Notes: generated by a model from the sequence alone, not told the origin. 64,000 bases of DNA from an uncultured Acidobacteriota bacterium (GCA_964524795.1 CAZGEH010000003.1:78675-142674); one strand, 5' to 3'; counted from the first letter of the stretch, positions 47,323 to 55,564 are shown. Numbers and translations: made by a program.

Positions 47323-49815
47323 ATGGCGGCGTTACCGCGAGGGTGCCGAGGTTGGGTGGTCCTGGCAGGGTCCGTTCTGGGTCTGGCCGTGGGGCCGTCC
47401 TGCGGAGGAGGGGGAGCAGGGGAACCGGCGGCGGTCCGCCTGGTTGACGTGTTTCCGTCCGCCACCGTCGAGGGAACTCCGGTGGATGTAACAGAACCCG
47501 ATCCCCTCGACTGGTGGAAGTTTGCCGAACCTCCGCCGAATACGATCGCCGCGGAGAGCCGTGCCACCTGGGGTTGGAAAGCATACGACGCCGTCTCCGG
47601 CCTGAAGCTCCGAGACGGACGGCTCACCGGTCGTACCAGCGGAGCCCTGCCGGTCCTGGCGGCCTCCCGCTTCACCAGCCTGGACGAGAGCGATCTGCTG
47701 CACGCGGTAGAGATCCGCATGCGGGTCAGTGCCGGCACCACCGTGACCATGGCAGCCTGGGGCGAAGCCGAACTCAAGACCCCCGAGCTGATCGGAATGC
47801 TCCGCGGAGCCCCGTTCCGCCTCCAGAGCCCGATCCTGCCGGGCGACGAGTTCCACACCTACACCCTGCAGCCCCCAATAGCCCAACCGCTCGCCCAGAT
47901 GAAGCACCTGATCGTCGTGCCCACCGACGCCGCCGGTGCGGATTTCGAGATCGACTCGATCCGGGTCATCTCCCGCCGGGAGCATCTGGCCAGAATCCCC
48001 TCGGGAGTCGGTTGGCAGGGCCTGTCCGAGATCTACCGGGAGACGGTCGTCGCCCGTTCCCCCGAGGTGATTCACCTGCCGCTGGAAGTTCCTCATGAGG
48101 CCTGGCTCGAACTCCATGTGGGAACCATCGAGCACGACCCGGTTACCTTCAGGGTGGGGGTCTCCGCCGGCGGTGAGGAGACTCCGCTGCTGGTGCGAAC
48201 GGTCACGGTCGCGCACCGGTGGGAGACGGTTCCCCTTGATCTTGCCGCCTATGGAGGCCGGAACGTGACCTTGAACCTGGGACTGGCAGCGGACGACCCC
48301 GGCAAGGTCGGCTTCTGGGGTGGAGTCACTTTGCGTCGGCGCGCCCCCGCGAGCCCGGTTGCCACTGACCGGAAGGCCGTATCCGTCTTGGGTGAAGCCG
48401 CCGGCCGGCCGCCTCAGGGTGTGATCCTGGTCGTGGCCGACACACTGCGCCGGGATCATCTGAATTTCCATGGCTACAGCCGCGAAACCGCCCCCTTCCT
48501 GGCGCAGCTTGCCGCTTCCGGGACGCTGTTCGAGGACAATATCGCACAGGCCACGTGGACTAAAGTCTCTGTCCCCTCCATGTTGACCTCCCTCTACCCG
48601 ACATCGAATCGCATCCACGACATTCCGGACCGACTCTCGGCGCAGGCCACCACCCTGGCAGAGATCTTCCGAGAAGCGGGATACGCGACCGTTGCCTATT
48701 CCTCGGTGCCCTTCACCGGCAAACTGACCAACCTGCATCAGGGATTCGAAGAGCTGCACGAGGTGACTTCGGTGCGCGCCGGGGAATCGCGCGAAAGCAA
48801 GACGGCCCGGGAGTATGTGGACCGCCTGACCCGCTGGCTCGAACTGCACGGCCGGGGACCGTTCTTTGTCTTTCTTCACGTCTTTGACCCCCACGATCCG
48901 TACGAACCCTTCCAGCCATACAACTCGCTTTGGGCCGATCTTTCCCGCAAGCCGGAACACGAACAGCAGCTCGAGACGGTTCGCAAGTTCATTGAAGACC
49001 CGTTGCTCAAGCGTTTCGGAATGCCCAGCCGCGAGGAATTCAGGGCGGCCGGCGTCGACGGGGACGCTTTCGTCGCTTACGACAAGGACTGGTACGACGG
49101 CTCGATCCGGGGAATGGACCGCGAAATTGCGCGGCTGGTGGAGCGACTGGGACAACTGGGCCTAAAACACCGTACGCTGCTGGTCTTTACCAGCGACCAT
49201 GGCGAGGAGTTTCTTGAACACGGTCGGACCTTCCACGGGCAGAATCTGTACGGAGAGCTGACCAACGTTCCCCTGTTTTTCCACTGGGAGGGTGTCGTTC
49301 CCGCCAACCTGCAGATCCAGAAAACCGTGCAGAACGTCGACATCATGCCGACGGTGCTGGCGCTGAGCCATTTGCCTGTCCCATCCGGGATTGCCGGACA
49401 GGACCTGCTGCCCCTGATGGCCTCGAAACAGCCAGGCGGCTCGTCGGCATCTCTCTCGGCGTCAGCCGCGGAACTCCGGCCGGCGATCTCCGAACGGCTG
49501 GAAACCCGGGCGCTTGCGGGGCCTCCGCCGCGGGGAACCGCCTCGGTGGCGCTCGTGCTGGACGGCTGGAAATTGATACACAACTACCAGCGTGTGGAGG
49601 GGCAACCGGAGTACGAGCTATACCGGCACCGCGAGGACCCGCTCAATTTCAACAATGTCGCCGCGGACAATCCCGAGGTAGTCTCCCGACTGGCCTCCGC
49701 GCTGGAAAAGTGGCGGGAGGCGGCCCTGGCGGCCCAGCTTCCCGAGGCGGACTCCACGGAAGGCCTCAGCCGCGAAGAACTGGAGCGCCTCAGAAGCCTG
49801 GGCTATGTCCAATAG
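47323..49815 (+). CDS. Sulfatase-like hydrolase/transferase (alkaline-phosphatase superfamily) with about 340-aa N-terminal domain of unknown function; lipoprotein
   Basis: Start MAALPRGCRGWVVLAGSVLGLAVGPSCGG (lipobox). The C-terminal half carries the sulfatase fold (VILVVADTLRRDHLNFHGY...FVFLHVFDPHDPY...FTSDHGE), but the formylglycine motif C/S-x-P-x-R is replaced by T-W-T-K-V-S-V-P-S-M. Confidence 0.65.
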   Translation: MAALPRGCRGWVVLAGSVLGLAVGPSCGGGGAGEPAAVRLVDVFPSATVEGTPVDVTEPDPLDWWKFAEPPPNTIAAESRATWGWKAYDAVSGLKLRDGRLTGRTSGALPVLAASRFTSLDESDLLHAVEIRMRVSAGTTVTMAAWGEAELKTPELIGMLRGAPFRLQSPILPGDEFHTYTLQPPIAQPLAQMKHLIVVPTDAAGADFEIDSIRVISRREHLARIPSGVGWQGLSEIYRETVVARSPEVIHLPLEVPHEAWLELHVGTIEHDPVTFRVGVSAGGEETPLLVRTVTVAHRWETVPLDLAAYGGRNVTLNLGLAADDPGKVGFWGGVTLRRRAPASPVATDRKAVSVLGEAAGRPPQGVILVVADTLRRDHLNFHGYSRETAPFLAQLAASGTLFEDNIAQATWTKVSVPSMLTSLYPTSNRIHDIPDRLSAQATTLAEIFREAGYATVAYSSVPFTGKLTNLHQGFEELHEVTSVRAGESRESKTAREYVDRLTRWLELHGRGPFFVFLHVFDPHDPYEPFQPYNSLWADLSRKPEHEQQLETVRKFIEDPLLKRFGMPSREEFRAAGVDGDAFVAYDKDWYDGSIRGMDREIARLVERLGQLGLKHRTLLVFTSDHGEEFLEHGRTFHGQNLYGELTNVPLFFHWEGVVPANLQIQKTVQNVDIMPTVLALSHLPVPSGIAGQDLLPLMASKQPGGSSASLSASAAELRPAISERLETRALAGPPPRGTASVALVLDGWKLIHNYQRVEGQPEYELYRHREDPLNFNNVAADNPEVVSRLASALEKWREAALAAQLPEADSTEGLSREELERLRSLGYVQ

Positions 49816-54952: not shown

Positions 54953-55564
54953 ATGCGTTGGCTGAGATCGATCCGTTACCGGTGGATGCAACCTGTCACC
55001 GTCGTCTCGGGACTGCCCCGGTCAGGTACCTCCATGACAGTCAAGATGCTGGAGGCGGGGGGGCTCCCCGTTTACACCGACCGGGCACGCCGTCCGGATA
55101 TCGACAACCCGGGTGGGTACTACGAGTTCGAAAGGGTGAAGCGCCTGGCGGAAGAGACAGACAAACACTGGGTCGCCGAGTGCCGGGGCAAGGTGCTGAA
55201 GGTTATCTCCTTCCTGCTGCCCGATCTGCCCTCTGAACTGGCTTACCGGGTGGTGTTCATGTCGCGGGATCTGGACGAGGTGGTGGCGTCCCAGAACAAG
55301 ATGCTGCAACGGCGGGGCGAGCCGTTGCAGGATGATGGGGTGGTCAGGCGCATGTTCGAGGACCATCTGCTGCGAATCGGCCGCTGGATCGCGCAGCAAC
55401 CGAATTTCCGGCTGCTGGAGGTGCCGTATGCGGAGGTGGTGCGGTCGCCCGAGCTCCAGGCCCGCCGCATTCGCGATTTCCTGGGCGACCCTCGGCTGGA
55501 TGTCCTGAAGATGGCGGAGGTGGTGAATCCGGAGCTGTACCGCAACCGCTCGGCAAGCATCTGA
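54953..55564 (+). CDS. Sulfotransferase-family protein (PAPS-dependent)
   Basis: VVSGLPRSGTSM is the 5'-PSB P-loop of sulfotransferases (PKSGTTW-like), and RVVFMSRD is 3'-PB-like. 203 aa. Confidence 0.6.
   Translation: MRWLRSIRYRWMQPVTVVSGLPRSGTSMTVKMLEAGGLPVYTDRARRPDIDNPGGYYEFERVKRLAEETDKHWVAECRGKVLKVISFLLPDLPSELAYRVVFMSRDLDEVVASQNKMLQRRGEPLQDDGVVRRMFEDHLLRIGRWIAQQPNFRLLEVPYAEVVRSPELQARRIRDFLGDPRLDVLKMAEVVNPELYRNRSASI

Follow-up and report, generated by a model that had tools for sequence, protein, structure and literature searches.

A conserved five-gene module of predicted sulfo- and phospho-ester enzymes with an Oxa1-type membrane protein in Acidobacteriota and other bacterial phyla

This report concerns a run of six genes at positions 47323-55564 of a 64,000-nucleotide stretch of bacterial DNA, the whole of which is called the window below. 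The window has a G+C content of 64% and belongs to the host genome G000 (contig C3; 4.45 Mb, 99.75% complete); in databases, its proteins find their nearest relatives under Acidobacteriota names. Two freshwater-metagenome DNA runs, possibly its source, are the only ones that contain the stretch in full, and no RNA run is listed for it. As a first-pass annotation of the window had described, the interval is filled by six co-directional open reading frames (ORFs) on the + strand, tightly packed and joined by overlaps or by gaps of at most 14 nt. The first, g1 (47302/47323-49815, an 837-aa frame), encodes an accessory Thr-type lipoprotein resembling sulfatases. It is followed by g2 (49805-51943), for an enzyme of the alkaline phosphatase (AP) superfamily (COG3379 type, Phosphodiest), and by g3 (51940-53904), for a paralogue of g2 with an N-terminal signal peptide. 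The last three are g4 (53919-54110), for a 63-aa protein of CopG/ribbon-helix-helix (RHH)-like type, g5 (54107-54946), for a membrane protein of DUF106/Oxa1-superfamily type, and g6 (54953-55564), for a predicted 203-aa sulfotransferase of the type that uses 3'-phosphoadenosine-5'-phosphosulfate (PAPS).

The reading frames of g1 and g2 overlap by 11 nt, or are separated by 22 nt if g2 starts at the alternative ATG at 49838, where the stored record P0002 (701 aa) begins. An ATGA overlap joins g2 to g3, and the 14-nt gap between g3 and g4 contains an AAGGAGG ribosome-binding site. The junction of g4 and g5 is a GTGA overlap, or an 8-nt gap with g5 starting at ATG 54119, its likely true start, and g6 follows g5 after 6 nt. 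From this spacing, together with the synteny described below, we infer that g1-g6 are a single transcription unit. The families guessed on first reading for the four enzyme genes were borne out by profile searches, which returned Pfam Sulfatase for g1, Phosphodiest for g2 and g3 and Sulfotransfer_3 for g6.

The conserved core of this arrangement is the five genes g2-g6, and g1 is a lineage-restricted accessory. We used an alignment of g4 as a pattern query for related loci; relatives of g4 found in this way are encoded in at least 518 species-level genomes, and the 80 best loci were examined. In nearly all of those that reach far enough, g2, g3, g4 and g5 keep their order and strand. The 80 loci span about 10 phyla, among them Acidobacteriota (including Vicinamibacteria, Thermoanaerobaculia and Aminicenantes), Gemmatimonadota, Eisenbacteria, Methylomirabilota and Thermodesulfobacteriota, with further examples in Entotheonella, Myxococcota, Fibrobacteraceae and Planctomycetota (including a metagenome-assembled genome labelled Phycisphaera). 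Conservation of synteny, by which the first-pass annotation had proposed to judge its operon, is thus strong, and the unit that is conserved is smaller than the six genes it had named: only a subgroup, 5 of the 80, has a g1 directly ahead of g2 (52-57% identity). Full-length orthologues of g1 occur in 10 of 41 relatives, the relatives here being genomes of the same taxonomic order and not mutually independent; nine of these ten genomes also have the module, and g1 often lies next to it.

Among those 41 genomes, g4 and g5 are found in exactly the same 21, and g6 in these 21 plus one more (G004). The pattern is patchy even within one family, where 5-6 of 15 genomes share it, which fits gain and loss as a unit. 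Twelve loci from this order were compared directly. A compact g2-g3-g4-g5 with the order kept is seen in eight of them, and in seven of the eight g6 directly follows g5; in the eighth (L021) g6 was not found within the stretch fetched. Two others (L024 and L025) are laid out as g5, FG-GAP/UnbV, TPR, g2, g3, g4 and an esterase gene, one (L018) has a truncated g2 and one (L019) is rearranged. The FG-GAP protein of L024 (genome G040, 203-10450) and L025 (genome G034) is of UnbV_ASPIC type, g4 ends there in ..RLKGLGYLE, and the module has no adjoining sulfotransferase gene, g6 being encoded elsewhere in both genomes. An FG-GAP/UnbV and TPR pair is also found in L017, convergent and just downstream of g6. 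Two copies of the module look decayed: in L016 (genome G003) g4 is frameshifted (9153-9401), and in G004 (C1:1905165-1908388) a truncated g3 is accompanied by g2, g6 and g1-like genes, with neither g4 nor g5 found.

The sulfotransferase gene is the mobile member of the five. Its most frequent place across the 80 loci is divergent from g2, with other copies following g5 or standing ahead of g2, and the fact that it moves yet stays near argues for a functional link. In a genus-level census, carriers were banded by how near their g5 match comes to the top attainable score (below 20%, 20-39% and 40-59%), and a g2-type gene was found within 5 kb of g5 in 54 of 135, 129 of 144 and 15 of 18 carriers, respectively, with fewer than 3 at random places. 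The corresponding counts for g6 were 9 of 135, 42 of 144 and 12 of 18, with none at random places; the census undercounts g6, because the distance from g5 to a divergent copy is about 4.5-6 kb. The lowest band also holds 402 genera of Nanobdellota, whose matches are most simply ordinary archaeal DUF106 proteins. A literature search found no published description of this gene combination, which is apparently undescribed, each of its parts belonging to a known superfamily.

Both g2 and g3 match Pfam Phosphodiest (PF01663) well above its cut-off of 23 bits (g2, E 5e-28, 99.1 bits; g3, E 9e-31, 108.2 bits), and they are 36-39% identical to each other. The paralogy recognised on first reading is confirmed by this identity and by common, invariant metal ligands and a Ser nucleophile: Asp101, Ser140 (codon at 50222-50224), Asp453, His457, Asp511, His512 and His661, in g2 numbering, do not vary in 18 aligned orthologues covering both paralogues. 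Their catalytic roles were assigned by position and by analogy with the nucleotide pyrophosphatase/phosphodiesterase (NPP) family. Since the full set of metal-site residues and the Ser are kept, g2 and g3 both look catalytically competent, and phosphodiesterase-type catalysis is predicted for each. Their label in the source databases is 'AlkP superfamily phosphohydrolase/phosphomutase'. A search at E≤1e-10 yields at least 7,997 relatives, those listed being 59-73% identical and including one labelled Sumerlaeota (63%); PhnA and one NPP are the only solved relatives detected by sequence, at E of about 2e-3.

The first-pass annotation had taken both proteins to be simply membrane-anchored, a view that we replace with one in which they probably face opposite sides of the inner membrane. 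The N-terminus of g2 consists of a signal-like segment ending in A-x-A, the motif AY[IV]GPGAG (aa 41-48, nt 49925-49948), a transmembrane (TM) helix and a linker rich in Arg and Lys. The motif is invariant among 65 g2 homologues, and the looser form AYxGPGxG is present in 46 of 49 orthologues; it could be a cleavage site, a contact for g5 or something else. The anchor would be a procoat-like hairpin with an external loop of about 13 residues, and the charge pattern, read by the positive-inside rule, places the catalytic domain (aa ~90-712) in the cytoplasm, so that g2 is expected to act on the cytoplasmic face. For g3, a signal peptide is present in all 49 orthologues that have an N-terminus, with a strict lipobox Cys in 22 of the 49 and a relaxed lipobox in some others, which points to an extracytoplasmic location; g3 is thus probably a secreted protein or lipoprotein working on the periplasmic face. 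Three database proteins from clusters of one or two members (P0395, P0396 and P0400) join a g3-like Phosphodiest AP domain to a g4-like C-terminus, and are probably read-through or gene-calling artefacts of adjacent g3 and g4.

Scans of Pfam and NCBIfam at E≤10 returned no family above its cut-off for g4; its match to Pfam PSK_trans_fac is weak (E 0.038; 15.3 bits, where the cut-off is 28.3). The RHH-like character proposed at first reading fits its CopG-like sequence pattern of strand, helix, GxS turn and helix. Neighbours of g4 in the Atlas are automatically named CopG regulators (0.96), and the nearest Atlas cluster with a Pfam family is RHH_1 (0.87, 27% of members). The protein is 63-81% identical across phyla. 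Its GYSS turn is invariant, as are Tyr61 and Ser63 in the C-terminal tail EEEIKKRL[KR]GLGYIS (54060-54107), and the last 15 residues are identical in 9 of 12 same-order sequences, the window's own included. The C-terminal motif RL[KR]xLGY[IV]x is invariant and common to g4 and g1, and a scan of the whole genome found these two to be the sole proteins ending in it. Internal copies exist, in the form ..ERLR[AS]LGYV[QG]G right after the AP domain, in sulfatase-like lipoproteins of L140 (genome G027) and L141 (genome G024), where a TPR region follows, and of the window's own genome (C6:66415-68571). G027 carries the internal motif and lacks the module. The idea that the tail is exclusive to the module was rejected on account of these copies in sulfatase-like proteins with TPR regions.

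We modelled the catalytic domain of g2 with g4, each with its own alignment, in three runs with three controls. The g2-g4 pair scored ipSAE values of 0.67, 0.69 and 0.67, and all controls 0.00. Of 80 solved complexes, 58 attain the mark that the pair passes, as do 2 of 110 mismatched pairs; the calibration is rough, since own alignments were used here. The runs share at least 98% of their contacts, and the partner pLDDT is 80. We know of no similar solved complex, which makes a pass from the predictor's memory unlikely. In the model, the GYSS turn and helix 2 of g4 lie on g2 residues 155, 204-206, 616-619 and 701-703, and the tail (aa 52-63) contacts residues 244-252, 401-409, His457, Trp638, Trp657, Asp660 and 662, that is, the active-site cleft. 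The modelled interface includes 13 of the 18 invariant residues of g4 (p = 0.003), and 20 of its 44 g2 contact residues are invariant (p = 2e-4). Because residues 171, 205, 409, 617-619 and 701 are invariant in g2 only, part of the surface that meets g4 appears to be specific to g2, whereas contacts 244, 248, 251-252, 405, 457, 638, 657 and 660 are invariant in g2 and g3 alike, which makes the cleft partly common to both. The model supports a role for g4 as a subunit of g2, with the RHH-like body on a g2-specific surface and the tail in the cleft. A k-mer scan upstream of g2 in 43 loci found no conserved operator; CATCGAGGT was marginally enriched (8-11 loci), which may come from the coding sequence of a divergent g6.

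The product of g5 had been recognised as a 279-aa membrane protein; that much stands, and we now identify it as a protein of DUF106/Oxa1 type. No Pfam or NCBIfam family was returned even at E≤10, and a search of the genome with PF01956 did not match it. The AlphaFold2 (AF2) model (pLDDT 97.3) has helices at 32-54, 57-76, 81-124 and 256-270. We divide the protein into TM1 (aa 33-53), a basic cytoplasmic helical hairpin (57-103), TM2 (104-124), an immunoglobulin (Ig)-like beta-sandwich (135-254) placed in the periplasm, and TM3 (256-270); the orientation, with the N-terminus outside, was taken from the charge distribution. A profile of the g5 family matches archaeal MJ0480 (5c8j_I; Ylp1, DUF106) at E 3.6e-8, with positions 8-121 on residues 8-125. 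In structure comparison, 7tut_8, a chain of a multipass-translocon structure, scores highest (Z 8.8, rmsd 3.4, 131 aa aligned), and YidC (3wo7) reaches Z 7.8, both Z scores lying below the caution level for helical folds. We take chain 8 of 7tut to be TMCO1. The Atlas gave EMC3_TMCO1 as a lead (0.86), and Foldseek of the model against the PDB returned weak Ig-like matches only, at E 3.6e-3 or worse. Proteins of the Oxa1 superfamily have a three-TM core, a cytosolic coiled coil between TM1 and TM2, the N-terminus outside and the C-terminus inside (PMC5868721). The modelled g5 agrees with this architecture, and we conclude that it is a bacterial protein of this type with a predicted Ig-like periplasmic insert, which may act as an insertase.

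For g6 the assignment as a PAPS-type sulfotransferase is upheld as a prediction. The protein scores 46.9 bits against Pfam Sulfotransfer_3 (PF13469; E 5.2e-12, cut-off 27) and 23.9 bits against PF00685 (cut-off 22), and in 33 orthologues Ser19-Ser27 (SGLPRSGTS), containing the 5'-phosphosulfate-binding (5'-PSB) loop GLPRSGTS (55007-55033), and Arg105 and Ser113 of the 3'-phosphate-binding (3'-PB) site are invariant. A g6 profile matches TPST2 and TPST1 in the 5'-PSB loop only (E 8e-4 to 4e-3), with SULT1 enzymes scoring alike, and a single-sequence PDB search returned nothing meaningful. A fused ATP sulfurylase/adenosine-5'-phosphosulfate (APS) kinase gene adjoins the module in 13 of the 80 loci, and a CysQ-like gene of the inositol-monophosphatase family (Inositol_P) in 9; examples of these PAPS-cycle genes are L029 1348-3075, L038 9738-11474, L050 1186-2229 and L052 1065-2108. 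Together they would cover the supply of PAPS and the disposal of 3'-phosphoadenosine-5'-phosphate. In the window's own genome, APS kinase/PAPS synthase is encoded away from the module.

The accessory gene g1 matches Pfam Sulfatase (PF00884) over aa 374-688 (E 3.6e-44, 151.7 bits, cut-off 25). Its first ~340 residues, described as novel on first reading, indeed have no Pfam or NCBIfam match even at E≤10; in the AF2 model (pLDDT 91.6, pTM 0.91) they form two beta-sandwiches (aa 37-217 and 228-339), ahead of an AP fold at about 366-770. Cys27 is a lipobox residue, and most of the homologue N-termini listed have a lipobox Cys as well. The formylglycine motif C/S-x-P-x-R is absent, as had been noted; TWTKVSVPSM stands in its place (aa 411-420), and Thr413 (codon 48559-48561) aligns with the formylglycine position of the sulfatase 4uph, where the sequence is T-K-V-S-V. 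Thr413 and Lys414 are invariant in 110 homologues. The likeness to LtaS and EptA that had been suggested is partial. It lies in the Thr position and in partial matches of aa 346-431 to EptA/MCR models, but the multi-TM architecture is lacking, and all NCBIfam scores fall far below the family cut-offs, the best being 51 bits against 500. As judged from these comparisons, g1 is probably a Thr-type sulfatase-like enzyme of a subfamily of its own, outside both the formylglycine sulfatases and the EptA/LtaS group. The family comprises 202 proteins. The g1 tail, ..SREELERLRSLGYVQ, is encoded at 49735-49812, and 115 of 120 homologues end in LGY[IVLM] followed by 0-3 residues, mostly as ..EELxRLRSLGY[IV]x; solved sulfatases stop about 30 aa before this position.

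Upstream of g1, the first-pass annotation had seen a promoter-like region carrying a large palindrome. The inverted repeats are real: nested copies occupy 47077-47227 and are built from an 18-nt unit, ACTCGGATCCCGCGGATG. They are not specific to the operon, since the genome contains the unit at 30 or more further sites, often arranged in tandem, and it is best described as a dispersed, REP-like repeat; we have rejected the palindrome as an operon-specific operator because the unit is scattered genome-wide. A promoter-like site, TTGACT-18-GATACT, is present at 47240-47269 (+), but the number of such sigma-70-like sites upstream, one found against 1.2 expected in shuffled sequences, is at the level of chance, and the site is a weak lead. 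Scans of the 64-kb window with Rfam and for tRNA gave no match.

The operon is flanked by genes for GH129-like and GH9/CelD_N hydrolases and an ATPgrasp_ST gene (43079-45586, 58734-61544 and 61952-63076), none of which recurs beside the module elsewhere. Downstream, a nucleotidyltransferase gene (56704-57024; NTP_transf_2, E 1.8e-12) overlaps a HEPN gene (57021-57365; E 5.8e-14) by 4 nt, a pair that resembles HEPN-MNT toxin-antitoxin systems; the HEPN match covers positions 1-69 of the 117 in the model, and the gene may be truncated or frameshifted. The pair is bracketed by an 89-nt direct repeat (55908-55996 and 57574-57662, 94% identical), which also occurs at about 1089-1177. At least 40 copies of this element, 78-94% identical, are present in the genome; it has a terminator-like hairpin and no Rfam match, and could be a structured RNA or an element resembling miniature inverted-repeat transposable elements.

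Taken together, these observations lead us to read g2-g6 as a two-sided membrane module for sulfo- and phospho-ester chemistry. We hold this general scheme at odds slightly better than even (a probability of about 0.55), and any single step within it is much less sure. On the cytoplasmic face, g6, with sulfate from PAPS, and g2 would act on a membrane-associated acceptor, with g2 carrying out phosphoester or diester chemistry through a phospho-Ser intermediate. The small protein g4 would gate or complete the active site of g2, and its RHH fold may couple occupancy of g2 to transcription. The membrane protein g5 might insert or scaffold the procoat-like hairpin anchor of g2, or might pass an amphipathic intermediate across the membrane. 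On the outer face, g3, and where present g1 with the same tail, would process the intermediate. The acceptor could be a lipid head group or the tail of g4 itself.

Several points weigh against this scheme. The LGY tail appears to be a general appendix of a sulfatase-like subfamily rather than a mark of the module. None of the conserved neighbours points to an acceptor. Conservation at the g2-g4 interface is coherent with the model but is not independent of the alignment from which the predictor worked, and the nucleophile Ser140 lies outside the confident contacts; a g4-type RHH protein might simply be a transcriptional regulator. The topology of g2 was derived from sequence rules alone, and the three g3-g4 fusions, if real, would clash with a placement of g3 and g4 on opposite sides.

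The first-pass annotation had proposed that the operon adds sulfate and phosphoester groups to, or trims them from, an envelope glycoconjugate such as a polysaccharide, lipopolysaccharide or glycoprotein. AP-superfamily enzymes of the LtaS, EptA, OpgB and BcsG types decorate envelope polymers, g1 has two beta-sandwich modules that possibly bind carbohydrate, GH129 and GH9 genes stand on both sides of the operon in the window, and one related locus has a CBM_4_9 protein. However, no glycosyltransferase, flippase, Wzx/Wzy, ABC exporter or polymerase recurs beside the module in some 90 loci, the flanking hydrolase genes are not retained beside the module elsewhere, most carriers do without g1, and one of the AP paralogues, g2, is predicted to be cytoplasmic along with the sulfotransferase. 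We therefore do not retain a glycoconjugate system as the working interpretation and rate it as unlikely.

The two-sided scheme leaves room for g4 as the substrate. In this case its tail would be sulfated by g6, most likely on Tyr61, or loaded with a phospho-form by g2, which would then remove or relay the group, loosely in the manner of RaxST and RaxX. AP-superfamily enzymes such as PptA and EptC can modify proteins. What is more, g4 is the sole conserved potential macromolecular substrate encoded in the module, and its invariant Tyr61/Ser63 tail is modelled in the catalytic cleft of g2. The g6 loop GLPRSGTS resembles the GVPRSGTT of TPST1/2, and there is precedent in RaxX, where Tyr is sulfated in a bacterial 60-aa precursor (PMC4646787). 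On the other hand, the TPST likeness is limited to the PAPS loop, the acidic surroundings typical of sulfated Tyr residues are missing from the tail, NPP-type enzymes with a Ser nucleophile are poor sulfatases, the module has neither exporter nor protease, and the presence of this tail on sulfatase-like proteins speaks rather for a docking role, structural or regulatory. We consider g4 doubtful as a substrate or carrier, and attach the same slim chance to the extended version, a protein-borne relay of sulfo- or phospho-esters across the inner membrane in which g2 would relay or remove the group carried on the tail arm of g4, and g5, g3 and g1 would continue the process outside.

A salvage of lipids or phosphoesters under phosphate stress would equally make use of both membrane faces. 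Here g2 and g3 would strip head groups from the two leaflets, g6 would produce a sulfated replacement and g4 would be a safety-catch inhibitor. Autotaxin, NPP6 and NPP7 are NPP-family enzymes that act on phospholipid head groups, the two-sided layout has an Oxa1-type protein between the faces, and an inhibitor that plugs a potentially self-damaging cytoplasmic enzyme would explain the invariant tail of g4. Against this, no pst/pho or lipid-synthesis genes recur beside the module and the substrate class is inferred throughout; salvage too strikes us as a long shot. That the genes are merely neighbours of unrelated function, with g4 only an autoregulatory CopG-type repressor, is very improbable: RHH proteins are usually DNA binders and the Atlas clusters of g4 bear the name of CopG regulators, but about 10 phyla preserve the gene order and strand, g4 and g5 share one set of genomes, to which g6 adds a single further genome, the conservation of g4 is far above that of the usual RHH regulator, and the k-mer scan gave no operator.

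If the two-sided scheme is right, it describes a new use of AP-superfamily enzymes, in which two matched enzymes work on opposite faces of the inner membrane and a tiny partner gates one of them, and it places a bacterial relative of the archaeal and eukaryotic DUF106 branch (TMCO1/EMC3/Ylp1) in a functional setting for the first time. It would also mean that Acidobacteriota, Planctomycetota, Gemmatimonadota and other phyla abundant in soil, sediment and freshwater possess a sulfation pathway so far unrecognised, which would matter for envelope biology and for the turnover of sulfur and phosphorus where these phyla live. Should the relay be true, hundreds of species from little-studied phyla would possess it. 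The ..RLxxLGY tail, as a short linear motif, is directly testable.

The module can be set beside several known systems. With the NPP/PhnA/PafA branch (Phosphodiest, COG3379), g2 and g3 share the metal ligands D, D-x3-H, D-H and H and the placing of the nucleophile at a helix N-terminus. They differ from it in that the nucleophile is Ser rather than Thr and in an insertion of about 230 aa with an invariant P-D-x2-G-x2-G-T-F loop at the cleft; in addition, g2 is predicted to be hairpin-anchored and cytoplasmic, and the two form an obligate pair with a small protein partner. EptA/MCR-1, LtaS, CptA and PptA/EptC have, like g1, a Thr at the position of the sulfatase formylglycine, and the N-terminal part of the g1 catalytic domain scores with the EptA/MCR models. 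Unlike EptA and LtaS, g1 is a lipoprotein with no N-terminal multi-TM domain, and it combines a sulfatase-like (SGSH_C) C-terminal half of the catalytic domain with two beta-sandwiches and the LGY tail.

The comparison for g4 is with RHH proteins (CopG/Arc/MetJ), including antitoxins, with which it shares the pattern of strand, helix, G-x-S turn and helix. In some of these antitoxins the C-terminal tail binds and blocks the partner enzyme, and in our model the g4 tail likewise fills the active-site cleft of its partner; the putative partner, however, is a membrane-anchored AP-type enzyme and not a toxin, and g4 is far more conserved. For g5 the relatives are the DUF106 branch of the Oxa1 superfamily (Ylp1/MJ0480, TMCO1, EMC3 and Get1) and YidC. 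The three-TM core, the outside N-terminus, the basic cytosolic hairpin between TM1 and TM2 and the inside C-terminus are alike, whereas g5 is bacterial, carries a 120-aa Ig-like domain between TM2 and TM3, sits in an enzyme operon rather than being a housekeeping insertase and is beyond the reach of Pfam PF01956. Finally, the link between a sulfotransferase and genes for PAPS synthesis recalls the Nod cluster of Rhizobium (NodPQ-NodH) and the Rax cluster of Xanthomonas (RaxPQ-RaxST-RaxX-RaxABC), and the Rax system further shares a protein of about 60 aa with a conserved Tyr (PMC4646787), here g4. Unlike these clusters, which come nearest to it in logic, the module has no Nod-factor or type I secretion machinery, and its obligate members include two AP-superfamily enzymes and a DUF106-type protein; unlike RaxX, g4 is not a fast-evolving precursor peptide but a folded protein of RHH-like type with very high conservation.

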